DNA of 64,000 nucleotides from an uncultured Bacillota bacterium (GTDB lineage: Bacteria; Bacillota_I; Bacilli_A; RF39; UBA660). Below, in pieces: positions 34,580 through 59,488 of the stretch. Below the pieces are notes generated by a model. That model was not told where the DNA came from. It saw nothing but the letters and a program-made list of their open reading frames with translations, and searched no databases. The stretch spans positions 3,219 through 67,218 of the forward strand of contig CANSAJ010000002.1 in the NCBI GenBank assembly GCA_947644695.1, written 5' to 3'. Within the stretch, counting starts at the first letter, position 1. The number at the start of each line of letters is the position of its first letter. The position numbers and the translations under genes were made by a program.

Positions 34580-34636
34580 ATCGAACCCACGTTAGCAGCT
34601 TGGAAGGCTGAAGTTCTACCATTAAACTACACCTGC
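34563..34636 (-). tRNA. tRNA-Gly (anticodon UCC), CCA encoded
   Basis: Revcomp GCAGGTGTAGTTTAATGGTAGAACTTCAGCCTTCCAAGCTGCTAACGTGGGTTCGATTCCCATCACCTGCTCCA. 7-bp acceptor stem (GCAGGTG/CACCTGC). Anticodon loop CTTCCAA. T-arm GTGGG-TTCGATT-CCCAT. Confidence 0.85.
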
Positions 34637-43927: not shown

Positions 43928-45058
43928 ATGAATGAGTATTTTATTTATCCTGGTATTGGTAAAATAGTATTAGTAAGTAAAAATGTTTTTTATAAAGAAC
44001 TTCAAGATAAGTTAGTTAAACTTGAAAGTGAAGAATTAAAATTAATAGATAGACTTTTTAATAATTATAGTGAATTTTTGTTAAGTAAATTTTTGATGGA
44101 TTTATTAGATTCTAATTCTAAATTAGCTAAGTTTAATAATGATACTTTTCGTTATATGTTAGAGTTTATAGAAGATTTAATTCCAGAAAAATATAGAGAT
44201 ACTTTTTATGAAAATTTAAAAACTTTAGAAATTGAATCTGGAATAGAATATGTACCATTAAATGAAGAAGAATCAAAAAATAAACTTAATATGGGTGGAT
44301 ATTGTATTAATTATAATCGTTTAGTAATTTATAAACATACTATAGATGGATTAACTGAATATGCTAAGAGTTGTGAAAATCCTGATGAAGTGTTTGGTAG
44401 AGAAATAAATCGTCTATTTTTTCATGAATTACTGCATATGGCTAGTAGTTCTTTTGATAAAGAGACAGGTGTAATTACTAGTGGATTTGGAGATTCAGTT
44501 AGCTTGATGAATCGTGGTTTAACTGAAGGATTCACAGAATTATTATCGATGATTAGTATACCAGGTACTTTAGAAATAAATTCTTTTTATTATCCATTTA
44601 TTTTACTTTCTAAGCAACTTGTTTATTTAGTTGGTATGGATGTAATGATGAAATCTTATTTTGGGACACATGATACACGTTTAATAGAGAAAGAGCTTAA
44701 TAAAATAGAAAATAATGAAGGATTTTCATTTGGTTTACTTTCTAATATTGAATCAAGTTTTATGATAAAAGAAAACTTAGGTGATGTTAAACAGACATTT
44801 ATGGGATCTGCTCAGAATTTGATGGTATATTATTTTGAGCAAAAAATGATAAAAGCAATAGAAGAGAGATCAATTAGTAAAAAAGAAGTAGAAGAATTAA
44901 TAACGGATTTTGAAAATTCTTTGATAGCACCTGAAATTTTATCTCTTAATAAGCTAAATAGTGAGAATTATGTTGGTATTGATAAAAGTTTAAATGCATT
45001 TAGGAGTTCTAAAGAGTATATTTTATCTCTTTTAAATGAAGCTCAGTTGAAAGGCTAA
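43928..45058 (+). CDS. HExxH-motif (putative zinc metallopeptidase-like) cytoplasmic protein
   Basis: FHELLHMASS motif. No signal peptide. 376 aa. Family not assigned. Confidence 0.35.
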   Translation: MNEYFIYPGIGKIVLVSKNVFYKELQDKLVKLESEELKLIDRLFNNYSEFLLSKFLMDLLDSNSKLAKFNNDTFRYMLEFIEDLIPEKYRDTFYENLKTLEIESGIEYVPLNEEESKNKLNMGGYCINYNRLVIYKHTIDGLTEYAKSCENPDEVFGREINRLFFHELLHMASSSFDKETGVITSGFGDSVSLMNRGLTEGFTELLSMISIPGTLEINSFYYPFILLSKQLVYLVGMDVMMKSYFGTHDTRLIEKELNKIENNEGFSFGLLSNIESSFMIKENLGDVKQTFMGSAQNLMVYYFEQKMIKAIEERSISKKEVEELITDFENSLIAPEILSLNKLNSENYVGIDKSLNAFRSSKEYILSLLNEAQLKG

Positions 45059-45141: not shown

Positions 45142-45810
45142 ATGAGGAATATAAAAAATATGTTAGTGTTTTCACTTTTGTTATTCTTTTTAATTAATGT
45201 TCCTTTATTAAAAGCAGATACATGTTCTGATAGTGTTAAAGAGGCTGAAGATATAGAGGTTACTACTAAAGTTGAGACCGTTAAATGGGAAGATAATGGT
45301 GGAATAACAAGTTATAATATATATGTTATTATAAAAAATATTACTGCTAATACTTATGTTGTTGTTATGAATGACCTTAATGATAAAGTAGAATATTTAG
45401 GGTATGAAGATTCAGATAATGGTGTAATAAAATTAAAAACATATAATCCATATAAAAAAATAAATTATGTAGTTAGGGCTTATACTAAGGATGTTTCTTG
45501 TAAGGAAGAGGCTGTAAGTACTAAAAAAGTTAGTCCTGCAGTGTTTAATAGTTATCATGAAATGGAAATATGCGGTGGGCGTGATGATATAGAAATGTGT
45601 GAACAATTTTATGATTCAAGTAAGATGAATATAGATGAGTTTAGAGAAGAAGTTCAAAAAATTATAGATGAGAAGAATAAAAATATTTTATGGTATATTG
45701 CAGATTTTCTTAAAAAGTATTATTTATTTATATTGATTCCTATAGTTATTGTTGTTTCTATTTTTGGAGTAAGAATAGCAATATTGAAAAGAGGTAAAGA
45801 TGATGAGTAG
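45142..45810 (+). CDS. Secreted Cys-containing protein with C-terminal TM anchor
   Basis: Signal MLVFSLLLFFLINVPLLKA. C-terminal LFILIPIVIVVSIFGVRIAIL plus KRGKDDE. Same architecture as 43265..43909. Confidence 0.35.
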   Translation: MRNIKNMLVFSLLLFFLINVPLLKADTCSDSVKEAEDIEVTTKVETVKWEDNGGITSYNIYVIIKNITANTYVVVMNDLNDKVEYLGYEDSDNGVIKLKTYNPYKKINYVVRAYTKDVSCKEEAVSTKKVSPAVFNSYHEMEICGGRDDIEMCEQFYDSSKMNIDEFREEVQKIIDEKNKNILWYIADFLKKYYLFILIPIVIVVSIFGVRIAILKRGKDDE

Positions 45811-48800
45811 TAAATTTAAAAGATATGTACATTTAACTTTATTTGTTTTTTGTTTATTGATTTTGCCTAATACATTGTTTGCTTTAGATGAAACAATTAC
45901 AGTTTATAATGGTGACAGAATTGAGGGTGGTTATGGGCATATAAATGGTGAAGAGGTAAGGGTTTACTCGACGACTTATCATACATCTGGAGGTACTGCT
46001 TATTGTTTGAATCCTGGTAAGCCTTTTCCGAATGAAGATAAAAATCAGAGTCAAACATATCACTTGAAAGATGTTTATGATTTATCTTCTTGTAAAAAGA
46101 GTAATGATAATATTTATTGTGGCTTTGCTTATGTTATTCAAGCTGCTGAATATAGATTTGGAGGAGATTATGTAACAGTAGATACTGGCCTTCGTTTATT
46201 TGCAGCATATAATGGTTTTAATCCTTCTGATGAGGATTATTGGTCTGATGCTGATGGAAAAAAATATGATAGAGCTTTTATTTACAAAACAACAGCTAAT
46301 TTGATAAAAGATGGACAATATAAAGATGGTGCATGGTTAAAAGAAGGGGTTTTATATGGTGATACTCCTGGTATAGCTCAGGGAATGGATTTGTTTGCTG
46401 AAACAACTTCACCATGGGGAGCTGATTTGTGGTATCCAGCTTCTGAACTTTTAGATGTTAAGTCTGTTACTGATGGTAAAAGCTATTTAGAGAAAGGTAA
46501 AAATGGTGTAAAACCTATTCCTAAAAATGCAGGTCCATTTACAATAACTGTACAGACAACATTTAACGAACATACGAAGGAAAAGACTGTAAGTGTTGAT
46601 AATGGTGCAATTATTCAGAGTGAAAGTTGGGGTAATTGTCCTGAGAATAATAAAGTTTTATGTTTGACATTAACTGTTGACACTTCTCAAGTTACATCAG
46701 ATGAATTTAATATTTTAGTTGATTATGTACAAACAGGAGATTTATCTGGAAGTATGGGGTATTATGAACCTGATGCGGGTACTGGTTTTCAAAATATGAT
46801 TATATACGAGCCAAGTCATGATCCAGTTAGATTTGAGATACCTATTAAGTTAAAAACTGATACATGTAGAGTTGAGACTAATCCTGAAACTAATGAAATG
46901 ATTTGTTATGATATTAATGGTAAACCTGATTGTCAAAGTTATTTAGAAACATGTGAAGCTGGTATATGTCAACCACCTACATATAGTCCAATAGTAGATG
47001 ATTATATTTGTTATGATGCATATGGAAATATGGATTGTGATAGTTATTATGAAACTTGTGAAACTGATTTGTGTGAAGAACCTTATACAAGTATTACATA
47101 TGATTTACCTAGTGAGTGTGAAGAAGGCGGACACACTAATGAAATAAATGATCCTGAGGTATGTACACTTTTACATACTAATAAGACAGTAGAAGAGAAT
47201 TATTCTACTAGTTATGGTAATGCTTATTGTAAAATTCTATGTAGAGAAACATTAAAGTTTTCATTTATGAGTAAAGAGGAAGCTCAGGCAGGACGGTATT
47301 TTCAACATAATGTAGAAGCAAAATATTCACAGATATCTAATTTAAGTACTGTTATTATGTCTACTAGACAATGTGCAAACGAAATAGATTATGATGAGTG
47401 GAAAGGCGACTATAATGAAACAAATGCTGCAGTATTAAGTTCTTGGAATGCTTTAAAATTTTGGGAAACTTTATATAATCATATAGGTGAATATCATGAA
47501 GAGAAGTATTATCAAAGTTGTAAGCATAGTACAGGATGTTGTGATAGAAGTTGTACTGAAACTGATAGTGAAGGTAATGATTATAATGTTTGTTGCGATG
47601 ACGGATGTTCTATAGGAGACTGTGGTCAAGATTATTACGTTTGGTATTGGGGATATATGGGATCAGGGCCGTTCCCATATAATATTAGTGATGAATATGG
47701 TGGGACAAGTAGAGATGAAGCTACTCATACTAGTGGTAGTGCAACTTGTAATGCAAATTGTTGTAGTGGTACTTGTCAAGTGACAATTAAACCGCCAACA
47801 GATGCAGAAATAAGATCTAATTATAGAGCGGCTCTTGGTGCTTATAAAAGTAATCTTTCTAGAAGAGATCAATTACTTTATCAGTTACAAGATTGTAACT
47901 ATGTAACTGATGTTAAGGTTGATGGAACTTATTATAAACCAGATGGTGGATATTATACTGTATCACAAGAAGGTAATTATCATACAAATGCAGCGCTTAA
48001 AACTTATCAACAGGTTAAAAAGTATGAACCAGGTAACATTGTAGATGTAGATTATGAGGAAAATTATACATATAATGAAGGCTTTAATATATCAAGACCA
48101 CTTGATAGAGATGTTACAGAATTACAGTTGATAGAAAGAAATTATAATAACGATGAAGATTGGCATAGTTACTGTGGTAGTGAATGTACTAAAGATTTGT
48201 CAACGCTTTCTAAGAATTTTTCTACTGAAAGACTTACTTATTTTGATTGTTCTGGTAGTGAAGAAGGTGCTCAATGTACTAGACAAGAAGTTACAGTTCC
48301 AATAAGTAAAGTTGCTAATATAATTTTAGAAAGAGAAACTGCTCATTATCAAGGTACAGACTTTTATACTCAGGTATTTACTGGTGATATATCAACATCT
48401 GGTGGAAGTTTAGGATATTGGATTCCAATGGAACCTCATCCATGGCCTGTAGGTATTAAGAGAATAACTGGTGATTATGAGATGGAAATCACTTTAGAGA
48501 AGTTAGGAGATCCTAAGAGAGTAGTTAAAATAGAAGATCAAGACTTGATGTGTTCTTATCATGTTACTAATGATTTAACAATTTATGATTGTGATGATGG
48601 ATATCATGTATGTTATCCATGTGATCCAGATGATGAGTATTGTTATCAAGATCCTACTCCTGGAGAAGAGTCAAGACCTGATTATGATTTAGGTGTATAC
48701 TTTAGAAGCATAGACTTAGAAGATATATTCCCTAATTCACAATTTAGTCCTAAGGATGGAGTTAATACTCCTGTTACAAGACGTATAGGTCAGAACTGGG

Positions 48801-49093
48801 CATCTCAGGGAAATATTATAAAAGAGATACAAGATTTAGGTGATAAAATTTGGACTAATACACCACAGTATTCAATAGTGTTATCACCAAGTACAATTAA
48901 GAAAATTAAATCTTATAATAAACAAAGGCATGATTATTTAGATTATTCTATATCATGTGATGCTAATTTAAGATGTACTAGTGATTTCTTAAATAGTAGT
49001 TTAAAAACTATTTTAGAAGATAAATATTATGATTTATATAAAAAAGATACTACGATATCAAATGATAGGCTTTATTATTACAAAGGACAGTGA
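45800..49093 (+). CDS. Large (1097 aa) secreted, extremely cysteine-rich protein. Candidate pilus-tip or mating adhesin.
   Basis: Signal peptide VHLTLFVFCLLILPNTLFA. More than 60 Cys, including clusters such as CDRSCTETDSEGNDYNVCCDDGCSIGDCGQD and CYPCDPDDEYC. Overlaps the upstream gene by 11 nt. Confidence 0.4.
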   Translation: MMSSKFKRYVHLTLFVFCLLILPNTLFALDETITVYNGDRIEGGYGHINGEEVRVYSTTYHTSGGTAYCLNPGKPFPNEDKNQSQTYHLKDVYDLSSCKKSNDNIYCGFAYVIQAAEYRFGGDYVTVDTGLRLFAAYNGFNPSDEDYWSDADGKKYDRAFIYKTTANLIKDGQYKDGAWLKEGVLYGDTPGIAQGMDLFAETTSPWGADLWYPASELLDVKSVTDGKSYLEKGKNGVKPIPKNAGPFTITVQTTFNEHTKEKTVSVDNGAIIQSESWGNCPENNKVLCLTLTVDTSQVTSDEFNILVDYVQTGDLSGSMGYYEPDAGTGFQNMIIYEPSHDPVRFEIPIKLKTDTCRVETNPETNEMICYDINGKPDCQSYLETCEAGICQPPTYSPIVDDYICYDAYGNMDCDSYYETCETDLCEEPYTSITYDLPSECEEGGHTNEINDPEVCTLLHTNKTVEENYSTSYGNAYCKILCRETLKFSFMSKEEAQAGRYFQHNVEAKYSQISNLSTVIMSTRQCANEIDYDEWKGDYNETNAAVLSSWNALKFWETLYNHIGEYHEEKYYQSCKHSTGCCDRSCTETDSEGNDYNVCCDDGCSIGDCGQDYYVWYWGYMGSGPFPYNISDEYGGTSRDEATHTSGSATCNANCCSGTCQVTIKPPTDAEIRSNYRAALGAYKSNLSRRDQLLYQLQDCNYVTDVKVDGTYYKPDGGYYTVSQEGNYHTNAALKTYQQVKKYEPGNIVDVDYEENYTYNEGFNISRPLDRDVTELQLIERNYNNDEDWHSYCGSECTKDLSTLSKNFSTERLTYFDCSGSEEGAQCTRQEVTVPISKVANIILERETAHYQGTDFYTQVFTGDISTSGGSLGYWIPMEPHPWPVGIKRITGDYEMEITLEKLGDPKRVVKIEDQDLMCSYHVTNDLTIYDCDDGYHVCYPCDPDDEYCYQDPTPGEESRPDYDLGVYFRSIDLEDIFPNSQFSPKDGVNTPVTRRIGQNWASQGNIIKEIQDLGDKIWTNTPQYSIVLSPSTIKKIKSYNKQRHDYLDYSISCDANLRCTSDFLNSSLKTILEDKYYDLYKKDTTISNDRLYYYKGQ

Positions 49094-49105: not shown

Positions 49106-49513
49106 GTGAAAGAGACGTTTTGGACATATTTATTAATTATAATAGGTATATTTGTAATAGTTGTTATGATTTTAGTTCAAGATTTGACAGGTACTACTGA
49201 AGAAGATTATTACCTTACTAAAGAAATAATGCAAGCAGCAATGATTGATTCTATAGATTATGGTGTTTATAGACATTATGGAGATATTAGAATTATAGAA
49301 GAAAAGTTTGTTGAGAATTTTACTAGAAGATTTAGTGAAAGTGTTAATTCTACTAAGACATATCAAATAGAATTTTATGAGATATATGAGTCTCCACCTA
49401 AAGCTACAGTTAGAGTTAAGACTGCTACTAGTGAATATCAGGTTACAAGTGATTCTTCAGTTGACTTTGATATAGTTACTATATTAAGTGGTATATTAGA
49501 GACTAAATATTAA
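49106..49513 (+). CDS. Small bitopic protein (N-terminal TM plus about 100-aa extracytoplasmic domain). Possible VirB8-like or minor-pilin-like component.
   Basis: GTG start after a gaggtgg RBS. TM TYLLIIIGIFVIVVMILV. Confidence 0.3.
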   Translation: MKETFWTYLLIIIGIFVIVVMILVQDLTGTTEEDYYLTKEIMQAAMIDSIDYGVYRHYGDIRIIEEKFVENFTRRFSESVNSTKTYQIEFYEIYESPPKATVRVKTATSEYQVTSDSSVDFDIVTILSGILETKY

Positions 49514-49527
49514 TAATTATAATAAAG

Positions 49528-49558
49528 AGAAGGAAATGTTTCCTTTTCTTTTGTTTTG
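49528..49558 (+). terminator. Terminator-like hairpin (aaggaaatgtttcctt + T-rich)
   Basis: 7-bp stem plus ttcttttgtttt. Confidence 0.45.
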
Positions 49559-49618
49559 TGTTGAATTTCTTTTTGTAATGCTTTATAATAGGATATATAG
49601 TAAGAATAGGAGGAGTTT

Positions 49619-50419
49619 ATGAAGAATATAATGATTTCTTTAAAAAGGTTCTTTGGAAATAAGAATACTATAACAATATTGTGTGTTTTGGCGGCAGTTT
49701 TGATATTATATTTTGCATATTCATATAGAATTAAGCAACAAACAAAGCCAGTTACAGTACCATATGCAAAGGTTGAGATTCAACCAAGAGAAAAGGTTAC
49801 TGAGGATAAAATTGGTTATGTAGAATATCCAAGTGTTATGCTTAAAACTAATGTTATTAGAAATGCAGCTGATGTTATTGATTATTATGCAAATTATAAT
49901 ACAGTAATTCCAGCAGGAAGTTTGTTTTATAAATCAACATTAGTTACATGGGCTCAGATGCCAGATTCAGCGTGGGCAGATATTCCAGATGGTTATACTG
50001 TTGTTAGTTTGAATGTTAATACTGAAACAACTTATGGTAATTCTATATTCCCAGGGAATTATATTGACTTATATTATGCAACATATGATGAGACTGGTAA
50101 ATTATTACTAGGTAAGTTAATTGAAAGTATTGAGGTTTTAGCTGTTAAAGATAGTTCTGGTAATCATGTGTTTGAAAATAGTTCAGAATTAAAAGCACCA
50201 TCATCACTTATATTTGCAGTTCCAGAAGATATGCATTTACTTCTTAGAAAAGCAGGATATTTAGATGGAGAACTTATACCAGTTCCAAGAAATGCAAGCT
50301 ATAGTCAAAATCCAAGTGCTACTATTGTAAGTAGTGAATATATTCAAGATTTCATTTTAAGTAAGACAGTTATATTGCCTGAACAAGGTCCATCTGGTGG
50401 AATTGGAACAATTGATTAG
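49619..50419 (+). CDS. CpaB/RcpC-like Flp-pilus assembly protein (N-terminal TM plus SAF-like domain)
   Basis: N-terminal TM ITILCVLAAVLILYFAY. Central VVSLNVNTETTYGNSIFPGNYIDLYY resembles the CpaB/SAF consensus. Location immediately upstream of tadA. Confidence 0.45.
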   Translation: MKNIMISLKRFFGNKNTITILCVLAAVLILYFAYSYRIKQQTKPVTVPYAKVEIQPREKVTEDKIGYVEYPSVMLKTNVIRNAADVIDYYANYNTVIPAGSLFYKSTLVTWAQMPDSAWADIPDGYTVVSLNVNTETTYGNSIFPGNYIDLYYATYDETGKLLLGKLIESIEVLAVKDSSGNHVFENSSELKAPSSLIFAVPEDMHLLLRKAGYLDGELIPVPRNASYSQNPSATIVSSEYIQDFILSKTVILPEQGPSGGIGTID

Positions 50420-50453
50420 AAAAAAGAAAGAATAATGAAGGAGTGGGTTTCCC

Positions 50454-51569
50454 TTGAATAATGCAATATTTGATCAAATTGATTTTGGTCCTTTAAAGAA
50501 ATATTTAGATAATGATGATATTACAGATATTTCTTATTCTAATGGGGGACAGATACATCTTAAGACGTTGAGTCAAGGTGTTGTTAAAGTTAATAATCCT
50601 GATATAAATAATTTACTTATGGAGAAAATAGCATTTCAGTGTTCTAATGTTATGGGTAAGACATTTAATATGGCTCATCCAATGTTAGACGCTGAAAGTG
50701 CTGAATTACGTCTTAACTTTGTACATGAAACTATTGCAACTAATGGCATTGCATGTGTTATTCGTAAAACTCCTGCTAAGATTAGACTTAATAAAGAAAA
50801 GTTAATTCAAGAAAATTATGTTTCTGTGCCTTTACATGATTTTTTGTTTAAATGTGTTGAAGGTCACTGTAATATAATTGTTAGTGGAGAAACTGGTAGT
50901 GGTAAAACAGAGTTAGTTAAATATTTAGCTAGTCATATAGCTGAGAATGAAAAAATAATAATGATAGAGGATACTTTAGAGTTACACTTAGATAGAATAT
51001 TTCCTCATAGAGATATAGTAGCTATGAAAACTAATAATATTGCAAGTTATAGTGATATACTTGTAGCTTGTATGAGACAGAATCCAAAATGGATATTGTT
51101 ATCAGAGGTTCGTAGTGCAGAAGCTGTTACGGCTGTTAGAAACTCTATAAGTAGTGGACATAATATTTTGTCAACTATACACTCTGATAAGGCTAGTGGT
51201 ATTCCTATGCGTCTTTATAGTTTGCTTGAAACTAATCTAGATGTTGAGCAGTTTTTGAAAACTATGCATAGATATATACATATAGGTGTACATGTAAAAG
51301 GTTACATGTCTAAACAGTATGGAAGATTTCAAAGAGAAATAGTGGAAGTGGCAGAGTTCTATGTGGATAAAAATAATGAAGCTAAGACTAATGTGCTTTA
51401 TTCTAAAGGTATGGATGGAGTAGAAGTTTATCACAATCCTTCTTCTAATTTATTAGATTATTTAGGTGCTCAAGGTATATATTTACCTACTGAGACGTTT
51501 GTAAAAGAAGGTACAACATTAAAGGAGACTATAAAAGAATCTGTTGTTCCTGATATAGAGATTTTTTAA
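50454..51569 (+). CDS. TadA/CpaF-family (VirB11/GspE-like) secretion ATPase
   Basis: Walker A IIVSGETGSGKTELV. Asp box/Walker B IIMIEDTLEL. His box context ...ILLSEVRSAEAVTAVRNSISSGHNILSTIHSD matches the CpaF consensus (RIIVGEVRG.EA...LQAMNTGH.GS.TTIHAN). Confidence 0.8.
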   Translation: MNNAIFDQIDFGPLKKYLDNDDITDISYSNGGQIHLKTLSQGVVKVNNPDINNLLMEKIAFQCSNVMGKTFNMAHPMLDAESAELRLNFVHETIATNGIACVIRKTPAKIRLNKEKLIQENYVSVPLHDFLFKCVEGHCNIIVSGETGSGKTELVKYLASHIAENEKIIMIEDTLELHLDRIFPHRDIVAMKTNNIASYSDILVACMRQNPKWILLSEVRSAEAVTAVRNSISSGHNILSTIHSDKASGIPMRLYSLLETNLDVEQFLKTMHRYIHIGVHVKGYMSKQYGRFQREIVEVAEFYVDKNNEAKTNVLYSKGMDGVEVYHNPSSNLLDYLGAQGIYLPTETFVKEGTTLKETIKESVVPDIEIF

Positions 51570-51587
51570 AAAAAGTGAGGTGAACTT

Positions 51588-52487
51588 ATGTATGTAGAAA
51601 TTTTTGTCATTTTGGCATTATTAATATTTGTAGTACTTTACAGAAAGAATACTGGTGATAAGTTTTATAAATATATTTCTGATGGCGTAAGTGAGATCTA
51701 TAATAAATATGCTCCTTATTCATTTAAAATGGTAAGAGAGAAGACTAAAGAATTAGGGCAAGAATATACTCCTAGACAGTACATTATACAAGTAGTTATA
51801 TTTGCAGGTGGAGCTGGAATAATATCATATTTATATTTTTATAGTATTATTGTTTCTATCATATATGCATTTTTAGCTGTTATGTTTATTCCATATCTTG
51901 CATATTTAAGATGTAATAAAGTGTATAGTGAGTTTATATTTGAACAAATACAAGTGTATTCTACTAACGTAATTATGGAGTTTAATACTACTCAGTCTTT
52001 TGTTAAATCACTTGAAGGTGTTAGAGATAGTGGTGTTTTAGAAGAACCATTGCTTGGAGATATTAATGAAATGATTTCAATAGCGTATAGTAGTTCTACT
52101 ATAGATGAAGCTATTGATTATATGAATAGTAAGTATGATTTTTATGTAATAAGAAATATGCATCAATTGTTTTTACAGATAACTAAAGAAGGTTCTAAGG
52201 ATTCTGGAGAAGCACTTGAAGGAATGCTTATGGATATAGATGCTTTAGTTGAAAGTGTATATAGAGATAGAATAGATAGACAGACATTCCATAAACAGTT
52301 TATAACATTTGGTGTAGCTTTATATTTTTTAGTGGCATTGATACAATATTTACTAGGTAATGAGAGTTATTTAGCACTTATAGAATTATGGTATGTACAG
52401 ATAATGTTACATGGTGTAATTATTATAAATACTTATTTCTTAGTTAATGGAGAAAAATATTATAATGAGGATGTGGGTGCCGAATGA
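51588..52487 (+). CDS. TadB-like inner-membrane platform protein
   Basis: About 300 aa with a N-terminal TM, a cytoplasmic region, then a cluster of 2-3 TM helices. ATGA-type coupling to tadA and to the next ORF. Confidence 0.45.
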   Translation: MYVEIFVILALLIFVVLYRKNTGDKFYKYISDGVSEIYNKYAPYSFKMVREKTKELGQEYTPRQYIIQVVIFAGGAGIISYLYFYSIIVSIIYAFLAVMFIPYLAYLRCNKVYSEFIFEQIQVYSTNVIMEFNTTQSFVKSLEGVRDSGVLEEPLLGDINEMISIAYSSSTIDEAIDYMNSKYDFYVIRNMHQLFLQITKEGSKDSGEALEGMLMDIDALVESVYRDRIDRQTFHKQFITFGVALYFLVALIQYLLGNESYLALIELWYVQIMLHGVIIINTYFLVNGEKYYNEDVGAE

Positions 52488-53275
52488 TGATTGAGATTGG
52501 AGTAGTTGGTGTTTTATTTGTTATTGTATTACTAGCTCAAGGGAAAATTGATGGTAATAAATTTATAAAAGATAATGAAAGAGCATTTAAACTATTAAAA
52601 GAAGATGATTATGATTTTTTAGTATCTGCTAGATATGGGGAAGGTGTGGATCCTAATTTACTTTTTGAGAAAAGAGTTAAGAATGGATTAATAACACTTG
52701 TACTTTTAGTAGTAATATTTATTTCGAATTTGAATTTTGTTAATTTGATAGTGTGTTTTATAGTTTCTTATTTAATTTTTAAGTCTGGTTATAGTAATTT
52801 AAAGACTTATTATAAAAAACATTTACATGAAATAGATTTATTACTTCCATATTATTTAAAAAGTTTAGAGATATTAATTCAACATTATACTGTGCCAGTA
52901 GCGCTTAGTAAAAGTATAGATCAAGCACCTAGTATATTTAAAGATGGTTTAAAGGAGTTAATAGGTAGTATTAATGCTGGTGATTCAACTATAGATCCTT
53001 ATATGGCATTTGCTATTAAATATCCTGTTAGAGATTCTATGAGGATGATGAGGCTTTTATATAGATTAGGTTTAGGTAATCAGGAAAGAAAGCAAGATCA
53101 GTTGATAGTATTTTCTAGAACTATTTCTAATTTACAGGCTAAAAGTCGTGATACTAAATATAAAGAGCGTTTGGAAAAGATGGAAAAGAAGACAATGGTT
53201 ATGTTATCGACAACTGGTGTTGGTGTTATGATTATTTTATTACTTGCTATTTTACAGATGTTCACTTCAATATAG
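52484..53275 (+). CDS. TadC-like inner-membrane platform protein
   Basis: Same topology class as the preceding ORF. Overlapping start. Confidence 0.45.
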   Translation: MMIEIGVVGVLFVIVLLAQGKIDGNKFIKDNERAFKLLKEDDYDFLVSARYGEGVDPNLLFEKRVKNGLITLVLLVVIFISNLNFVNLIVCFIVSYLIFKSGYSNLKTYYKKHLHEIDLLLPYYLKSLEILIQHYTVPVALSKSIDQAPSIFKDGLKELIGSINAGDSTIDPYMAFAIKYPVRDSMRMMRLLYRLGLGNQERKQDQLIVFSRTISNLQAKSRDTKYKERLEKMEKKTMVMLSTTGVGVMIILLLAILQMFTSI

Positions 53276-53350
53276 ACATATAAGAAATTATATGTTTTTT
53301 TGTGTTTTGTATTTAGAATTGTTAAAAAGTGTTAAATATTTTATCTTTGC

Positions 53351-53379
53351 TTGATTAATAAATATGTTTAAAGTATAAT
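53351..53379 (+). promoter_or_regulatory. Consensus-like sigma-A promoter (TTGATT-17 nt-TATAAT) in front of the prepilin gene
   Basis: ttgatt aataaatatgtttaaag tataat, followed 25 nt later by an aagggagg RBS and the GTG start. Confidence 0.6.
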
Positions 53380-53415
53380 AATAATTGTAATAATAATAAG
53401 GGAGGTAGATTTCAA

Positions 53416-53700
53416 GTGAAAGAAGCTACAGGTGAATTAAATATGACTGTTATTACAGTTATTGCAATAGCAGCGGTTGCAGCATTATTCTATGCCTTTG
53501 TTTGGCCTATGATTCAAAGAACAATAGTTCAACAAACATGTAATGCGTATGGACCAGGATATACGGCAGAAAAATCAACTGATCAGAATACTTGTCAGTC
53601 AGCAAGTGATAAAACTAGTTGTTGGGTTTGTAAATGTGATAAAGCTAAAGGATGTACTGGTAAAGATTTAGTGATTGATGGGCCTGGAACAGGTAATTAA
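53416..53700 (+). CDS. Candidate major prepilin (Flp/Tad-class short leader ending in Gly, hydrophobic N-terminal helix, Cys-rich C-terminal knob)
   Basis: GTG start 10 nt after GGAGG. Leader VKEATG followed by ELNMTVITVIAIAAVAALFYAFVWPMI. Six Cys in the C-terminal 45 aa (CNAYGPGY...CWVCKCDKAKGC). Confidence 0.5.
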   Translation: MKEATGELNMTVITVIAIAAVAALFYAFVWPMIQRTIVQQTCNAYGPGYTAEKSTDQNTCQSASDKTSCWVCKCDKAKGCTGKDLVIDGPGTGN

Positions 53701-53716
53701 TAAGGAGTAATTTGAT

Positions 53717-54187
53717 ATGAGAGAAGCGATTGGTGGAACGTGGTTATTAGGATTTGTCGTATTGTTTATAGTACTCTTTTCAGCTTATTTAGCCGTTTCA
53801 ATCAATTATACTAAAGCTTTTAGAGTTAAGAATCAAATTATTAATATTATTGAGGAGAACGAAGGGTTTACAAAAAGCAGAGGAGATGTTGCTGGTAAAC
53901 CTCTTGATCAGCTCCAAAATAGTAATAAGACAGAAGATAAAATTTATCATTATCTTAAACAAATAGGTTATGCTACAACAAATATTGAAGATGATAGGTG
54001 TGAGAATGGTTCAATGCAAACTGGAGGTTATTGTGTTGAACGTGTCTGTACTAGACAAGGATCGTATTATAAAGTCACTTCATTTATTAAGATTGAATTA
54101 CCACTTATATGGCAATCATTTGTGATTCCTGTTAAGGGAGAGACTAAGGTTTTATATTGGACAGTTGATGATATAACTTGTTCATAA
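53717..54187 (+). CDS. TadE-like minor (pseudo)pilin
   Basis: MREAIGG plus TWLLGFVVLFIVLFSAYLAVS hydrophobic segment. About 150 aa. Position after flp. Confidence 0.4.
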   Translation: MREAIGGTWLLGFVVLFIVLFSAYLAVSINYTKAFRVKNQIINIIEENEGFTKSRGDVAGKPLDQLQNSNKTEDKIYHYLKQIGYATTNIEDDRCENGSMQTGGYCVERVCTRQGSYYKVTSFIKIELPLIWQSFVIPVKGETKVLYWTVDDITCS

Positions 54188-54209
54188 TTTTGAAAGAGAG
54201 AGGAATAGA

Positions 54210-55199
54210 ATGAATGTAATAATTGCTAATAAATATAAGGATATGTTAAATAGCTTAGATATAGAGGTTATAAAGTCCTTAGAGGGTGTTTATGATGTAT
54301 CTGAGATAATAGATAATTTTTCTAATTTCTATTTTGATAGAATGATACTTGATATAACAGCTTTAGATAATTATGAGAATTTAGATACTTTACAGAAGTT
54401 AAGTATTAATTTAGATATGGCTAAGGTAATTCTACTTTTAGATGATAATGATGAGAGTTCGAGTAGTCAATATTTATCAAAACTTATTTCTATGGGGATT
54501 TATAATTTTACAAGAAATTTAGAAGGGGTAAGATATTTACTTCAAAATCCTAATAGTTATAGAGATGTTGCGCATATACATAATGTAAATGCGGGAGAAA
54601 GTTATTATGATGATAGCTTATCATCTACAACTAGAGTTATAGGTGTTAAGAATTTATCAGAGGGAGCAGGCGCTACTACACTTGTTTATATGATGCTTAA
54701 GCATTTAGAGAGTAATTATAGTGTTTGTGCTTTAGAAGTTGATAAAAGAGATTTCATTTATTTTGACGATAAAGAAATGATGTCTACAACTTCTGCAGAT
54801 TTACCTAAAGAATTAATGAAAAGAAGATCATATAATGTAGTTTTAATTGATTTAAATACTTATAGTGATCCTGATATATGTAATGATGTAATTTATTTAG
54901 TTGAGCCATCAATATTAAAACTAAATAAATTAATGAAGAGAGATAGAAGAGTATTTGAAAAATACAATCATAAGAAGATAGTATTAAATAAAAGTAATGT
55001 TTCTAATAGTGAGTTAAATGTTTTTGAATATGAAGCTAAAACTAAGATATTCTATAATTTGCCTCCTTTAGATGAAAGAAGAGAAAGTAATAGAGAAATT
55101 AATGGATTATTATCTAAATTAGGTTTTGCTAAACAAAGTAGTGGAGTAGAAGATGATAGTGATTCAAAAAATAAGTTATTAGGTATGTTTAAATTTTAG
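54210..55199 (+). CDS. TadZ/CpaE-like protein (receiver-like N-domain plus degenerate ParA/MinD-type ATPase domain)
   Basis: Central RVIGVKNLSEGAGATTLVYMM occupies the position of the deviant Walker A of MinD/ParA but is degenerate. Size and position in a tad cluster. Confidence 0.4.
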   Translation: MNVIIANKYKDMLNSLDIEVIKSLEGVYDVSEIIDNFSNFYFDRMILDITALDNYENLDTLQKLSINLDMAKVILLLDDNDESSSSQYLSKLISMGIYNFTRNLEGVRYLLQNPNSYRDVAHIHNVNAGESYYDDSLSSTTRVIGVKNLSEGAGATTLVYMMLKHLESNYSVCALEVDKRDFIYFDDKEMMSTTSADLPKELMKRRSYNVVLIDLNTYSDPDICNDVIYLVEPSILKLNKLMKRDRRVFEKYNHKKIVLNKSNVSNSELNVFEYEAKTKIFYNLPPLDERRESNREINGLLSKLGFAKQSSGVEDDSDSKNKLLGMFKF

Positions 55200-55275
55200 T
55201 GTAAAGTTGGCATATTTATTTGACATTAAATTTTATTTATATTAAAATTGTTATAGTGAAGAAGGAGAAGAGATT

Positions 55276-55659
55276 ATGAATATGAATATGTTTTATTTAT
55301 TAGCAGAAGAATCAAAAAATACAATTAGTGTGTGTAATGATTTAGCACCTGTTTGGACTATTTTAGGTTATATAATATTAGCAATACAAGTTATTGTGCC
55401 AATTTTATTAATTATTTCAGGAATGATAACAATGGCTCAGGCTGTTATGGAGAAAAAAGAAGATAAGATTAAAGAAGCGCAGAATTTATTAATTAAGAAG
55501 ATAATAGCGGCAGTTTTATGTTTCTTAGTTATAGCAATTACTAAGATGGTTGTTAATTTGGTAGTTACTGGTGATTGGGAAACTTGTGTAAAGTGTGCGT
55601 TACATCCTACAACAGCAGAAGGTTGCGGATTTGATAAAGCTGAGGTAAATCCTAAATAA
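55276..55659 (+). CDS. Small two-TM membrane protein
   Basis: TM1 VWTILGYIILAIQVIVPILLIISGMI, TM2 IIAAVLCFLVIAITKMVVNLVV. C-terminal Cys pair. Confidence 0.3.
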   Translation: MNMNMFYLLAEESKNTISVCNDLAPVWTILGYIILAIQVIVPILLIISGMITMAQAVMEKKEDKIKEAQNLLIKKIIAAVLCFLVIAITKMVVNLVVTGDWETCVKCALHPTTAEGCGFDKAEVNPK

Positions 55660-55827
55660 TAATATAATTTAAGTAAAGAAAATTAGTACTATTTATTTAG
55701 TACTTTTTATTTGGGTGAAATTAGTTGACATAGGTTGATAAAAATATTAAAATTATGTTATGTATATGCGAGTATGTATAATGATGAAATGCACTTTTTA
55801 TGTACTTAGAATATTGAGAGGTTAAAT

Positions 55828-56634
55828 ATGAAAAAGATTTTTATATATAGTTTAACATTTATTTTATTGACTTTTAGTTTTGTTGGTAATTTGAAAGCAT
55901 ATCTGAGAGTAACTAAGGAGTGTCCTGTTAATGCTACTTTTGAAAACCCAAAAACTGGTACAATTGAGAGTTTAGAAATCGTTTATTTTATGAATTCACG
56001 TGGTGAGAAGAGAATTAAGATTAATTATAATGGTGGTAATGCAGAAAGTCTTTATTCTACTAAATCTACTACTGAAGTTAATGTTGGTGGTACAATTTTC
56101 TACTTTTATCCAGATGATGCTGATAATATTTTTAAGCAAACTAAAAGACAAAAAGATTTAAATACTTTTACGTGTCCTTCTAAGACTTTGCATATAAGAC
56201 CTAGTAAGGGAAGTTCAAGTGAAGGTAATAAATATGTTTCTTCATATAGTTCTAAAGTTTTAAATGAATATGCAGAAGAGGACACTAGTTCTGAAGAAGA
56301 GCCAGATGGATCTAATTCATCAGTTCTTCCTCCTAGAGAAAATGAATCTTGCGTGGATTATTTAGGACATGCAAAAGATGATCCAGGAAGTGTAGCTGCT
56401 ATTTTGGATGATGTTTATACTGTAATTAAAATAGGTTCTATTATAGTACTTATAGTTTTGAGTTTGTTAGATTTTGCAGGTGCGATTACTAAAAATAAAG
56501 ATGAATTAATGCCTACTGTTAAAAAGTTTGGTACAAGATTGATTATTTTAGTATTAATTTTATTAATACCAAGTTTTATAGATTTATTAGGTAGAATGTT
56601 TGGAATTCCTGATATTTTATGTGGTATTAAGTAG
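55828..56634 (+). CDS. Secreted/bitopic protein with C-terminal double TM
   Basis: Signal IFIYSLTFILLTFSFVGNLKA. Acidic low-complexity region. C-terminal IGSIIVLIVLSLL...LIILVLILLIPSFI. Confidence 0.3.
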   Translation: MKKIFIYSLTFILLTFSFVGNLKAYLRVTKECPVNATFENPKTGTIESLEIVYFMNSRGEKRIKINYNGGNAESLYSTKSTTEVNVGGTIFYFYPDDADNIFKQTKRQKDLNTFTCPSKTLHIRPSKGSSSEGNKYVSSYSSKVLNEYAEEDTSSEEEPDGSNSSVLPPRENESCVDYLGHAKDDPGSVAAILDDVYTVIKIGSIIVLIVLSLLDFAGAITKNKDELMPTVKKFGTRLIILVLILLIPSFIDLLGRMFGIPDILCGIK

Positions 56635-56658: not shown

Positions 56659-58602
56659 ATGGGTATTTTTAAGTTAGGATTTAGTTTTTCTGGTTTTTCT
56701 GTTCCTATTGTATGGCAGATATGTTTAGCTATAGATGCCATTATTTATGAGGTTGCAGATCAAGCACTTAGAACTTTTTTTAGATTAGCAGCTTTATCTG
56801 CTGATGTTCAAGCTTATAGTAATGAAATAGGTTATATTTTAAGTCGTGTGATGGTTTTAGCTGGAATTTATGCACTTTTTAGAATAGCTATTATGCTTAT
56901 TAATTATTTAATAGATCCTGGTAAGATAGAAGAAGCAACAAAAACTGGTACTCAAATTGTAAAGAATGTTGTTATATCTGTGGTGTTACTTGTAAGTTTA
57001 CCTCTTATTTTTAAAGTATTAGGTAGAATTCAGCAACAGATAATAAGTCAAGATGTAATACCTAAACTTGTATATGGTTTAGATGCTTTTGATGATGAGA
57101 AAAATGGAATTGAACAAAGGTCAACTAAATTTGTAAATGATGTTTTCTTAATATTTTTTACACCTGATAAAGCTAATTGTAGTGGATCAAGTGGGCCATC
57201 ATATTGTAAGGATTATAATGCTGTTAAAAATGCTGAAAATGGTACTGGTATTACTGGGTTAATGCCTTATGTTTATTCACCTTATTTTACATATACTCCT
57301 TTTATTTCTGGTTTAATGGGGATGGTCTTAATTTATTATTTTGTAATATTTTCGATTGATTTAGGTGCTAGAATAATTAAGTTAATGGTTTTGCAAGTTA
57401 TTTCACCAATACCTGTCATTATGTATATAGATCCTTCTCAAAAGAATAAACTTACTAATTTCTTTAAAGCTTATTCTGTATTATATTTACAGGTATTTCT
57501 TAGGATAATAACTTTATATATGGCTTTTGTGGTTTTGGATTTAGTTGTTAACTCAGATGCTTTTAATACCGCGATTAATGGTGGTATGTTACTTGCTGGT
57601 AATTTCTTTGTTAAAATAATTCTTTATATAGGTGTATTTCAAGCTACTAAAGAACTTCCTAAATTAATAGAAGATGCATTAGGTGTTAAAATGGGAAGTG
57701 CTCCAGGTGGAAACTCATTTGGAAAAGTATTAGCGGGAGTAGCTGGAGGAGCATTTGGATTTACGGCTGGCGCTATTGCTGGAGGTGTTGCTGGTAAATC
57801 TTCTGGCGTTGCAGGAGTTACTGGAGGAGCGCTTATGGGTGCTGCTACTGGTATGTTATCTGGTGGTGCAGGTTTCATAGGTTCTAAAAATGTTGCTGAA
57901 GGTGTTAAATCAGCTGTTAAAAGTGTAAAAGATGCTTCAAGCACAGGTAAACGTGTTGCTGCTACAGGGAATTTGTTTAATTATGCTCGTGGAAATTTTG
58001 ATAATTTAATCGGATATCCTGGAAGAGTCGATACTAAAGTAAAGAATACTAAAGATAAGTTGGAGAAAATGGATGCATTTGAAAAGGCAGTATTTGATGA
58101 TTATTCAAAGACGGTAGATCCTACTACAGGATTTAAATACGGTACTTTGGACGAAGACTTTGGTGTTATAGCTGCAAGAGGTGCTCGTGATCAATTCATT
58201 TCAGATTATAATGAGGGTAAAGCTATAGATCCTACTACAGGTGCCGTTTATACTCCTGCAGCTGCAGCAGCTCGTTTAAATACTTTAAGAGCTTCAGTTA
58301 AAACTCAAGAAGATGCTTACAAGCAAAAAGCCTTTGATTGGTTTCAAGCTAAATCATTGGATCCTACTACTGGTAAAGTTAAGTATGATCCTAAAAAGTA
58401 TGCCACTTTATCTGAAAGTGAAAAAGCTCATCATGAATTGACAAGAACAACGAAGAAAACATTAATTCCTTCTTCTAGAAGTGATTTAAGAACTGATTTT
58501 TCTGCTATGCGTAAAACTATTAAAGCTGATAGCAAGAAATATCAAGCACAATCTCAAACAGATAGAGCTAGAAATGCAAGAGCAGTTAGTGATAAAAAAT
58601 AG
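56659..58602 (+). CDS. VirB6-like polytopic channel protein (TcpH/ConG/Tn916-Orf15 analogue) with Gly-rich segment and hydrophilic C-terminal domain
   Basis: At least 6 predicted TM helices in the first 330 aa. Gly/Ala-rich amphipathic segment GGAFGFTAGAIAGGVAGKSSGVAGVTGGALMGAATG. A 250-aa soluble tail. Position directly upstream of the VirB3/VirB4 genes. Confidence 0.5.
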   Translation: MGIFKLGFSFSGFSVPIVWQICLAIDAIIYEVADQALRTFFRLAALSADVQAYSNEIGYILSRVMVLAGIYALFRIAIMLINYLIDPGKIEEATKTGTQIVKNVVISVVLLVSLPLIFKVLGRIQQQIISQDVIPKLVYGLDAFDDEKNGIEQRSTKFVNDVFLIFFTPDKANCSGSSGPSYCKDYNAVKNAENGTGITGLMPYVYSPYFTYTPFISGLMGMVLIYYFVIFSIDLGARIIKLMVLQVISPIPVIMYIDPSQKNKLTNFFKAYSVLYLQVFLRIITLYMAFVVLDLVVNSDAFNTAINGGMLLAGNFFVKIILYIGVFQATKELPKLIEDALGVKMGSAPGGNSFGKVLAGVAGGAFGFTAGAIAGGVAGKSSGVAGVTGGALMGAATGMLSGGAGFIGSKNVAEGVKSAVKSVKDASSTGKRVAATGNLFNYARGNFDNLIGYPGRVDTKVKNTKDKLEKMDAFEKAVFDDYSKTVDPTTGFKYGTLDEDFGVIAARGARDQFISDYNEGKAIDPTTGAVYTPAAAAARLNTLRASVKTQEDAYKQKAFDWFQAKSLDPTTGKVKYDPKKYATLSESEKAHHELTRTTKKTLIPSSRSDLRTDFSAMRKTIKADSKKYQAQSQTDRARNARAVSDKK

Positions 58603-58617: not shown

Positions 58618-58935
58618 ATGAATGATATGTATTTGATACCTGCAAATAGTAAGAATGGTAAATTGATATTTAATATGTTTAGACCTGTTGATTTAGTTGT
58701 GTTTTTAACTGGTCTTGCTATTACAATTATTTTCTTTCTTGCTATTGGTAGCAGTTCTTTATGGGCTACAATAATTAAATTAACGCCAATAAGTGTAGGA
58801 GCTCTTCTAGTTGTTCCTGTACCTTATTATCATAATGTTATGGAGTTTATTAAAGATGTGTATTTGTTTTTGATAGGTAGGCGTGTGTATTTATGGAAAG
58901 GTTGGTGTGTTAGAAGTGAGTACGAAGAAAAGTAA
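58618..58935 (+). CDS. VirB3-like small membrane protein (TcpE/ConD analogue)
   Basis: 105 aa. Two TM helices (VVFLTGLAITIIFFLAIG, ISVGALLVVPVPYY). Immediately precedes VirB4. Confidence 0.4.
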   Translation: MNDMYLIPANSKNGKLIFNMFRPVDLVVFLTGLAITIIFFLAIGSSSLWATIIKLTPISVGALLVVPVPYYHNVMEFIKDVYLFLIGRRVYLWKGWCVRSEYEEK

Positions 58936-59488
58936 GGTAAATGTTAAGAGTCAAAAATATGCAGAGAATTGGTTACCAATTAAATCTATTTTGAATGGAG
59001 CTATTCAATTAGAGGATGGTATGCAAGTTTCTGGTGTTAAGATTCAACCAAAGAATATATTTATTATGGATTTTGATAGTCAAAAGAATGTAATATATAA
59101 TTTAAGAAATTTCTATAATACACTTGATTATGAGTTTTGGGTGATATGTGCTGATAGACCTGTTGATATTAATGTATATTTAAGTCAATTACAGCTTTTA
59201 TATAATAATGTTCAGACTCCAGTTATGAAGAAATTAGTTATGCAAGATATTAATAAAGCTAATTTGTTTATGAGTAAAGAGATAGGTGTAGCTGATACAG
59301 AGTATTTTATATTATTTAGAGAGAAAAGACCTGAAATTATACAGAAGAGAATTCAAAATCTTGTTAGTGGTTTGGCTTCTTGTGGTCTTCAAGCATCTCA
59401 GACAAGTAATGATGATTTAAGAGTTTTACTTGATGGTTTCTTTAATGATGGAAGTAGAACTGAGTTTGGGACGGTGATTAGTGCATGA
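58883..59488 (+). CDS. VirB4-family conjugative ATPase, N-terminal segment (about 190-200 aa). Start codon uncertain (GTG 58883/58907/58916).
   Basis: ...ENWLPIKSILNGAIQLEDGMQVSGVKIQPKNIFIMD... resembles the conserved N-terminus of Gram-positive VirB4 proteins (TcpF/ConE/Tn916 Orf16/PrgJ). Ends in a TGA that overlaps the ATG of the next ORF (GCATGA). Confidence 0.5.
   Translation: MCIYGKVGVLEVSTKKSKVNVKSQKYAENWLPIKSILNGAIQLEDGMQVSGVKIQPKNIFIMDFDSQKNVIYNLRNFYNTLDYEFWVICADRPVDINVYLSQLQLLYNNVQTPVMKKLVMQDINKANLFMSKEIGVADTEYFILFREKRPEIIQKRIQNLVSGLASCGLQASQTSNDDLRVLLDGFFNDGSRTEFGTVISA

Follow-up and report, generated by a model that had tools for sequence, protein, structure and literature searches.

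A putative, strongly diverged Tad-type filament module collinear with a pLS20/pCP13-type secretion gene set in chromosomes of uncultured gut Bacilli

Seven consecutive genes of an uncultured Bacillota bacterium raise the question of whether they encode a Tad/Flp pilus or another machinery that resembles it in gene order. They lie in a stretch of 64,000 nucleotides (nt), hereafter the window (RF39; UBA660; assembly GCA_947644695.1, contig CANSAJ010000002.1, positions 3,219-67,218, forward strand), where a first-pass annotation made from the sequence alone had read them as a complete Tad/Flp pilus operon, running from cpaB-like to tadZ-like with a consensus promoter directly before the pilin gene. 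All seven open reading frames (ORFs) that it listed at 49619-55199 are present at exactly those coordinates, and their order, which speaks for a Tad-derived origin, is the one of the canonical Firmicute Tad locus, i.e., ATPase-T2SSF-T2SSF-Flp-(peptidase)-TadE. The reading preferred here, at a probability of roughly 0.55, is that the segment from 49.1 to 55.7 kilobases (kb) encodes a strongly diverged Tad-type (type IVc-like) filament module, which would be a standing part of a type IV secretion system (T4SS) gene set of the pLS20/pCP13 type. The seven genes are the following:

49619-50419 (+), CpaB/RcpC-like membrane-anchored protein of 266 amino acids (aa), assigned by Pfam RcpC, with one predicted transmembrane (TM) segment at residues 11-30
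50454-51569 (+), CpaF/TadA-like secretion ATPase of the T2SSE family, 371 aa, counterpart of the pLS20 "VirB11-like" gene 37, assigned by Pfam, PDB comparison and blastp
51588-52487 (+), polytopic membrane protein, 299 aa, remote T2SSF (TadB-like) platform candidate by hhalign, homologue of pLS20 gene 38
52484-53275 (+), second polytopic membrane protein, 263 aa, TadC-like, paralogue of the 299-aa protein by hhalign, its start overlapping the preceding stop
53416-53700 (+), 94-aa putative filament subunit with a GTG start, a MKEATGELNMTV leader, a hydrophobic helix and a variable Cys-rich C-terminal part
53717-54187 (+), 156-aa bitopic protein (p156), putative minor subunit, with a leader MREAIGG related to that of the 94-aa protein
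54210-55199 (+), 329-aa cytoplasmic two-domain protein (p329), described from its AlphaFold2 model and Foldseek

Considering the ATPase, its designation as tadA stands, since Pfam T2SSE is matched at 94.7 bits (cut-off 24.9; E 6e-27) and the best solved relative in the PDB is Caulobacter CpaF (E 2e-20 over residues 4-257), followed by FlaI (E 8e-17) and by VirB11 (E 1.6e-13), the last over the P-loop region only. With the NCBIfam subfamily models, namely VirB11, TrbB, the TadA-family TIGR03819 and FlaI, all scores are far below the cut-offs, those for VirB11/TrbB being marginally higher than the one for the TadA family. The protein is also 34% identical to the VirB11-like ATPase of pBatNRS213 (blastp, E 1e-46), and in the annotation of pLS20 the corresponding gene 37 is a putative VirB11, genes 36 and 38-41 being given as unknown (PMC8557374). 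The marginal NCBIfam preference and the "VirB11-like" label of the pLS20-family homologues favour an explanation, judged improbable, in which no filament is built at all, the ATPase being the third, VirB11-type ATPase of a T4SS and the membrane and small bitopic proteins being monoderm-specific parts of an inner-membrane or wall-spanning channel; the contiguity of the module with VirB6/VirB4 in 14 related loci and in the window goes in the same direction. This explanation is, however, at odds with the PDB comparison, where both CpaF and FlaI rank above VirB11 across the N-terminal domain, with a hypervariable, paralogous and strongly promoted small subunit that resembles the subunit of a surface-exposed polymer, and with the presence of a T2SSF-like pair together with a CpaB homologue, which are hallmarks of type IV filament machines and not of VirB systems. 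The CpaB-like protein itself passes Pfam RcpC marginally, at 29.8 bits for a cut-off of 28.8, which upholds the first-pass name; it reaches 38 bits (E 9e-10) with TIGR03177, below the cut-off, and can be aligned collinearly, at 22% identity, with its CpaB-like counterpart in the Tad locus of Alkaliphilus.

As for the two polytopic membrane proteins, their designation as TadB-like and TadC-like holds in part. Neither the 299-aa nor the 263-aa protein has a Pfam T2SSF, NCBIfam or PDB-sequence match, and none was obtained when ten distant members of the TadB-like family were scanned for Pfam T2SSF. What stands is a weak, remote link by hhalign, in which a profile of the TadB-like family, diversified with distant full-length members from an exhaustive profile search, aligned with the annotated T2SSF protein of Alkaliphilus pB6464 (70%, E 4e-5, 157 columns), with its T2SSF paralogue from the same source (43%, E 2.5e-4) and with the profile of the TadC-like family (74.5%, E 2.7e-5, 210 columns), the latter match pointing to mutual paralogy. 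The same profile aligned with the gene following the "VirB11-like" ATPase in pBatNRS213, a homologue of gene 38, at 96.5% (E 9.5e-10). With low-diversity profiles (effective diversity, Neff, 1.6-1.9), hhalign gave only 13-17%, and the signal rose once distant members were added. A syntenic protein of a C. perfringens plasmid matches Pfam T2SSF weakly (E 0.01). By hydropathy, an N-terminal TM segment and a TM pair are followed by a soluble, helical stretch of about 120 residues and then by C-terminal TM segments; in the 299-aa protein, five hydrophobic segments flank the helical domain at residues 110-233. The AlphaFold2 model of the TadB-like protein is all-helical, with a predicted local distance difference test (pLDDT) score of 65 and no meaningful Foldseek match. 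The platform family comprises at least 8000 clusters at 90% identity, the members listed being closely similar. Taken with moderate confidence, the 299- and 263-aa proteins are very diverged platform proteins of the TadB/TadC type.

The small subunit is where the module departs from the first-pass annotation, which had made the 94-aa product a short-leader prepilin, unusual for a Flp pilin. Flp pilins are about 50-70 aa long and carry a G/XXXXEY processing site, with Glu at +5 and Tyr at +6. The 94-aa protein, in which the six Cys reported before are indeed present (positions 42, 60, 69, 72, 74 and 80), does not match the Flp Pfam model (PF04964), and its conserved Gly is followed by ELNMTV, i.e., Glu at +1; the family consists of 1640 proteins without any Pfam domain. 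The PilFind rule asks for [GAS], four uncharged residues and [DE], then 14 uncharged residues near the N-terminus, in a protein with a single TM segment and at most 350 aa (PMC3244431). While the size and the single N-terminal TM segment of both the subunit and p156 families are within these limits, the core motif occurs in 0/103 subunit-family and 0/105 p156-family sequences, and the Flp and TadE proteins of Alkaliphilus, used as controls, match; a class III prepilin is thus unsupported for both genes. A Flp pilin was accordingly set aside as the identity of the 94-aa protein, given its length, its Cys content, the Glu at +1 and the missing Pfam match. The tadE-like label of p156 could not be kept either, as none of 22 family members matches TadE (PF07811) or DUF4320 and hhalign gave 0.5% and 5.7%, respectively; p156 has a leader of the type M-R/K-E-A/S-x-G in common with the 94-aa protein.

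What the family does display is a strongly uneven conservation. The MKEATGELNMTV leader and the hydrophobic helix next to it are almost invariant, pairwise identity being 82% over residues 1-46 versus 35% over the C-terminal part, the number of Cys is even in 102 of 103 members, and each locus has one to three tandem paralogues of the gene. Judged from these sequences, a variable C-terminus, paralogues and paired Cys are how a surface-exposed polymer subunit would be expected to behave, and the even Cys number implies extracellular disulfides in an anaerobic gut Gram-positive bacterium. Of note, the 1097-aa surface protein encoded upstream (45800-49093) is unusually Cys-rich, as are the 94-aa subunit and p156 (53416-54187); other genes of the window encode, at 15780-16487, a CxxC protein that is thioredoxin-like by its translation and, at 34835-35347, a DUF6568 membrane protein.

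Regarding a prepilin peptidase, the earlier remark that the cluster lacks TadV/CpaA is borne out and can be extended: by a motif heuristic, as opposed to a hidden Markov model, no hydrophobic ORF with the motif G.[GA]D.K was found in the 64-kb window or within about 10 kb on either side of the module at 87 related loci, and no A24 Pfam match appeared among the window ORFs scanned. Because Glu directly follows the Gly and no A24 peptidase is found nearby, processing of the subunit, if any, would be non-canonical.

The last of the seven products, p329, had been called tadZ-like, which is right at the level of the fold. Its AlphaFold2 model (pLDDT 75) combines a (beta-alpha)5 receiver-like domain (residues 1-115) with a P-loop nucleoside triphosphatase domain of SIMIBI fold (residues 140-305) for which Foldseek returned HypB, ParA, FlhG/MinD-like proteins and ParF (E 5e-4 to 7.5e-3), so that the modelled architecture is that of TadZ. 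The part of the claim that did not hold is relatedness in sequence, p329 showing no similarity to the TadZ-like ATPase of a Firmicute (Alkaliphilus), no Pfam match and, as a profile against PDB sequences, nothing useful. The Walker A motif of ParA/MinD proteins carries a catalytic lysine; in p329 the region reads xKNLxxGAGATT, with alanine in place of lysine, and this is conserved across the family.

How these genes are transcribed bears on both the operon and the subunit. The TadC-like gene (end 53275) and the 94-aa gene (start 53416) are separated by a gap of 140 base pairs, in which the promoter TTGATT-17-TATAAT had been read. Within the window this match has no significance, 99 sites of equal quality being found in the 45-60 kb interval versus 96.4 expected from shuffles; related loci were therefore collected for a conservation test, in which the best -35/-10 pair was sought in 81 distinct regions upstream of the subunit gene and scored out of 12. 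The following elements are relevant:

49524-49551 (+), terminator-like hairpin with a 12-pair stem and a T-run, 3' of the DUF5411 gene
49561-49589 (+), promoter-like site TTGAAT-17-TATAAT before the CpaB-like gene, at least 10/12 in 61% of 56 related loci
53276-53302 (+), AT-rich inverted repeat and T-run directly after the TadC-like stop, weakly terminator-like (minimum free energy -8.7 kcal/mol, z -2.4)
53351-53379 (+), sigma-70/sigma-A type promoter, TTGATT (53351-53356), 17-nt spacer, TATAAT (53374-53379), read in the sequence and conserved in related loci
53400-53405 (+), ribosome-binding site GGGAGG, 10 nt 5' of the GTG start; an AGGAGG-type site is visible, uncounted, in the printed related loci
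55220-55248 (+), near-consensus promoter-like site TTGACA-17-TAAAAT before the VirB2-like gene (p127), at least 10/12 in 87% of 61 loci, with TTGACA in 47/61

A perfect TATAAT was present in 76/81 upstream regions, a spacer of exactly 17 nt in 74/81 and a -35 element TTGAT(A/T) in 53/81, and the -10 element ended 26-45 nt 5' of the subunit start codon in 77/81; a score of at least 10/12 was reached by 94% of the 81 loci versus 15% of shuffles. An extended -10 element, looked for in the same 81 regions, is absent in register. It might be argued that, the DNA being AT-rich, the site resembles a promoter by chance and that the seven genes are read through from a single upstream promoter, and the local frequency of such sites, being that of chance, would agree with it. 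This view is nonetheless very improbable, since hexamers, spacer and start-codon distance are kept (74-77 of the 81 loci, TATAAT and the start-codon distance in 76-77) though the flanks diverge, since the control gene starts nearby, i.e., those of the ATPase, TadB-like, TadC-like, p156, p329, VirB6, p105 and VirB4 genes, reach at least 10/12 in only 0-5% of cases, and since a hairpin with a T-run lies 3' of the preceding TadC-like gene. Hairpin-plus-T-run elements clearer than that of the window were seen by eye 5' of the subunit gene in several related loci. The significance of the promoter thus comes from its conservation and not from the match in the window; conservation confirms it as real, the transcript start being a predicted one. 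The site before the gene for p268, further downstream, scores at least 10/12 in 62% of loci. As conserved promoters sit inside it, the presumed seven-gene operon is rather a series of at least four predicted transcription units, headed by the CpaB, subunit, p127 and p268 genes, and the description as one complete operon had to be given up. The subunit gene appears as the head of its own unit, pilin-p156-p329, and conserved sigma-A-type promoters front the 94-aa and VirB2-like genes, not the enzyme genes.

What the first-pass annotation overlooked is the neighbourhood of the module, which by its gene order lies within a Gram-positive T4SS of the pLS20/pCP13 type and runs collinear with it. The genes concerned are the following:

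45800-49093 (+), 1097-aa Cys-rich secreted surface protein, putative adhesin at the position of the Tie adhesin in pLS20-type operons; no Pfam match, homologues precede DUF5411 in most related loci
49106-49513 (+), DUF5411 protein with a membrane helix at its N-terminus followed by about 100 aa, homologous to pLS20 gene 36 (Pfam PF17424, E 3.6e-52; blastp against a 126-aa protein of pBatNRS213, E 3e-5)
55276-55659 (+), VirB2-like T4SS pilin (p127); Pfam T4SS_pilin E 0.043 for the window copy, stronger matches in the family
55828-56634 (+), 268-aa secreted or membrane protein (p268), whose gene opens the T4SS block and is preceded by a promoter-like site (55725-55753)
56659-58602 (+), 647-aa polytopic VirB6-like channel protein with seven hydrophobic segments, placed ahead of p105/VirB4 as in pLS20-type operons
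58618-58935 (+), 105-aa two-TM protein (p105) at the VirB3/PrgI position, matching the place of the 103-aa gene of pBatNRS213; no Pfam match
58883-61269 (+), split VirB4 ATPase, made up of a TraC-like N-terminal part (201 aa, 58883-59488) and an ATPase part (594 aa, 59485-61269)
61286-64000 (+), cell-wall hydrolase with SpoIID and C39-like peptidase domains, VirB1 analogue, extending beyond the window (918 aa on the same contig)

In the VirB2-like family, Pfam T4SS_pilin (PF18895) is matched by 19/26 members (best E 4.6e-7), and related loci have one to four divergent tandem copies of the gene, which stays with the Tad-like module even at loci that have no VirB4/VirB6 in the vicinity. VirB4 matches P-loop_TraG, AAA_10 and DUF87, its 201-aa product matching the TraC-like PF26593; the split is kept in all related loci and is not a sequencing error, because pBatNRS213 has a similar pair (192 and 631 aa) at the same position. 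The 647-aa VirB6-like protein has no significant family match of its own. A VirD4 coupling protein (916 aa), preceded by a 266-aa protein, is found 4 kb past the window, on a contig with identical proteins, and is followed by housekeeping genes. Upstream of the module come DUF5411, the 1097-aa surface protein, a sortase, a DUF87 ATPase and a transglutaminase-like protein. Neither the subset of window ORFs that was scanned nor the precomputed Pfam assignments of genes in the 10 kb downstream yielded a relaxase or an integrase. The G+C content of the window is 24-32%. Housekeeping genes flank the module on both sides, with cysS, Ku/LigD and NrdD/NrdG in the window (read from translations) and rhodanese, DedA and RmuC just past its end, so that the locus is considered chromosomal. 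A phage origin or a plain integrative and conjugative element (ICE) was set aside, given housekeeping genes on both sides, synteny across many species and no integrase or relaxase found.

The gene order shared with the pLS20, pCP13-like and Paraclostridium plasmids comprises adhesin, DUF5411, ATPase, two membrane proteins, small bitopic proteins, VirB2-like, VirB6, two-TM protein, split VirB4 and hydrolase; three products, namely the ATPase, the DUF5411 protein and the first of the membrane proteins, have demonstrated homology to their pLS20-family counterparts. The order adhesin-DUF5411-like-ATPase recurs in loci L001, L002 and L089 (pBatNRS213). At nucleotide level, megablast of the 49-56 kb segment against a plasmid collection gave no match, nor did tblastn of the 94-aa protein against plasmids.

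Beyond this genome, when each species was represented by a single genome, relatives of the 94-aa protein turned up in at least 411 species-level genomes, and the ATPase, the two membrane proteins, the CpaB/RcpC-like protein, p329 and the small bitopic proteins are syntenic in at least 80. All carriers are metagenome-assembled genomes (MAGs) of uncultured gut bacteria labelled "Bacilli bacterium", Tenericutes/Mollicutes or "Clostridium sp. CAG", including one 1.53-Mb chromosome; as far as these sequences tell, the system is a lineage-wide, chromosomal one of uncultured gut Bacilli. The core order is p222, big adhesin, DUF5411, CpaB (1-2), ATPase, TadB-like, TadC-like, pilin (1-3), p156 (1-2), p329 and p127 (1-4), with ATPase identities of 70-90% across related loci. 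In the 1.53-Mb MAG chromosome (L038, CP091739.1), each module gene appears broken into two to four fragments, which would reflect either assembly frameshifts or a decaying copy. Modularity was counted in 51 loci with enough flanking sequence, where the T4SS block is contiguous with the module, as in the window, in 14. The genes of the subunit set, the VirB2-like one among them, lie where the two blocks meet and go with either of them.

Part of this distribution would suit a stand-alone Tad/Flp adhesion pilus, unrelated to the T4SS and with a pilin cut by a TadV/PilD peptidase encoded elsewhere: in 30 loci, housekeeping genes follow the module with no VirB6/VirB4 within 7 kb, the gene order is as in Firmicute Tad loci, and peptidases shared from elsewhere in the genome are known for type IV filaments (PMC6668835). 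Such a pilus is unlikely, as the subunit has no Flp motif and fails PilFind in 103 of 103 sequences, p156 is without TadE homology, the VirB2-like gene is attached even in the "Tad-only" loci, and the platform, DUF5411 and ATPase genes have homologues in the same order in proven pLS20-family conjugation operons.

The preferred reading, a diverged Tad-type module belonging to a T4SS gene set, has to bear several observations that weigh against it, namely (i) the platform homology is of moderate probability, the pLDDT-65 model coming without a fold match, (ii) the subunit sequences fail every test for Flp/type IV prepilins and the Gly is missing in two family members, (iii) no prepilin peptidase appears near the module, be it in the window or at the 87 loci, by the searches described above, (iv) no VirB6/VirB4 lies within 7 kb downstream in 30/51 loci, and (v) in 7/51 loci, pilin-p156-p329-p127 is joined to the T4SS with no ATPase/platform genes within 4 kb upstream. 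From these 30 and 7 loci it follows that the Tad-like and T4SS blocks are separable in cis and that functional coupling to the T4SS is not obligatory in cis.

If the module nonetheless works as its genes suggest, the CpaF-like ATPase and the two platform proteins would pull the 94-aa protein out of the membrane into a growing polymer, p156 being a minor subunit that possibly primes polymerisation. The product would be a disulfide-stabilised surface filament or a short pseudopilus crossing the thick wall, with the subunit supplied in excess from its own promoter. The CpaB-like protein may form an envelope collar, as RcpC does in Tad machines (PMC12307814), and p329, as a pseudo-ATPase, may act in assembly or localisation. 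On the model of the R64 and PAPI-1 type IV pili, the filament could help the VirB4/VirB6/VirD4 apparatus to make contact between cells or to penetrate the envelope. All such functional statements on the module are inferences.

A further-reaching and tentative proposal, less probable than the preferred reading, is that the module represents an unrecognised type IV filament branch of monoderms, which would work with the VirB2-like pilin and a relaxase-less chromosomal T4SS as an organelle of cell-cell interaction or DNA exchange in small-genome gut Bacilli; its features would be a non-canonical, possibly uncleaved N-terminus (the invariant MKEATGELNMTV), no A24 peptidase and platform proteins beyond the reach of Pfam. 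Should this proposal be true, a cryptic filament module derived from Tad (genes 36-41) would also be present in the pLS20/pCP13 systems, which are currently regarded as pilus-less. Reviews describe Gram-positive T4SSs as without pili and relying on adhesins instead (PMC12102498, PMC10221548), and an incomplete literature search found no work linking pLS20 genes to Tad-type assembly. The interest of the locus is that it would tie the "unknown" pLS20 genes around the VirB11-like ATPase to Tad-type filament assembly, with several hundred uncultured gut species having the same kit, along with a VirB2-like pilin, fixed in their chromosomes, and that it would name at least six large protein families without a Pfam model. 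Besides, the conserved promoters define the transcription units of the system, and the idea is directly testable in B. subtilis with pLS20, which is genetically tractable.

Elsewhere in the window, a direct repeat of about 0.3-0.7 kb, 91-100% identical (30058-30770 and 33850-34560, spacing 3792 nt), flanks a 3.8-kb segment that ends beside a tRNA-Gly gene (34563-34636, -) and holds an apparent AbiEi/AbiEii-like toxin-antitoxin pair (31027-32471, from translations); the arrangement suggests a small islet that integrated here, or else a duplication. On the reverse strand, 13283-14335 encodes a 351-aa protein with an ADP-ribosyltransferase exoenzyme domain (Pfam E 4e-16), beside a 199-aa membrane-anchored protein, and 25450-29683 encodes large secreted proteins, one with C-terminal dockerin-like repeats (from translation); cohesin- and dockerin-domain genes flank the module in two related loci (L006, L007). 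Beside the adhesin genes, 43928-45058 encodes a 376-aa protein with an HExxH motif (FFHELLHM) and no match in Pfam or in related loci, possibly a metalloprotease.

Compared with known systems, the module shares with the canonical Tad/Flp loci (Alkaliphilus sp. B6464 plasmid, Caulobacter Cpa) a CpaB-like protein, a CpaF/TadA-type ATPase, two single-domain platform candidates, a small subunit and a larger bitopic protein, in the same order. It differs in that no A24 peptidase is found nearby, the G/XXXXEY site and TadE/TadF homology are missing, the subunit is larger and rich in disulfide Cys, the platform proteins fall below Pfam T2SSF detection, and the TadZ counterpart has neither the P-loop lysine nor sequence similarity. 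It should thus not be filed as a Tad/Flp operon, because the tests for Flp, TadE and TadV failed and the likeness to T2SSF and TadZ is a remote one and one of fold, respectively. Tad-like loci without recognisable prepilins are on record in Clostridia (PMC3244431). In gut Roseburia, Ruminococcus and Eubacterium, an operon of CpaF, GspF, DUF5411 and an internalin-like protein was predicted (Miller et al. 2022, PMC9523054); DUF5411, the CpaF-type ATPase, the GspF-like membrane protein and the large, adhesin-like one are what it has in common with the locus described here, the other genes being unannotated, whereas that operon belongs to Clostridia, has eight or nine genes and a recognisable GspF, and was reported without a T4SS link.

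With the pLS20 operon (genes 34-54), the likeness concerns gene 36 (counterpart of DUF5411), the ATPase gene 37 and genes 38/39 for membrane proteins of about 265 and about 245 aa, and pLS20-type plasmids further offer a 120-aa protein with an N-terminal TM segment, tiny hydrophobic proteins, VirB2-like, VirB6, a 103-aa two-TM protein and a 192-aa protein plus VirB4. Relative to these plasmids, a CpaB homologue and the ParA-like protein of 329 aa come in addition, VirD4 lies at the far end, past the window, no relaxase was found among the scanned ORFs, and the 94-aa Cys-rich subunit stands where they have two 47-aa proteins. In pBatNRS213 (L089 14147-14459) these are identical tandem hydrophobic proteins (MLDQNADRMYWVIGAVLVVGALIGL...), possibly Flp-sized subunits of the same kind of module. 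By its genes, the module is therefore a relative of the pLS20-type conjugation set with no relaxase found, but a chromosomal one in hundreds of species, not plasmid-borne. Patescibacteria, a different phylum, also have a chromosomal monoderm-type VirB4 T4SS in small genomes, usually relaxase-less and with divergent VirB2-like arrays (PMC12102498), a Tad-like ATPase/platform module not being reported there. Finally, the thin pilus of R64 (IncI) and the PAPI-1/ICE pili place a type IV filament machine beside VirB4/VirD4, where it is thought to provide contact for DNA transfer (PMC12857230); those machines are of type IVb, with canonical prepilins and peptidases, in diderm bacteria, whereas the machinery considered here would be Tad-like, monoderm and accompanied by a VirB2-like pilin.

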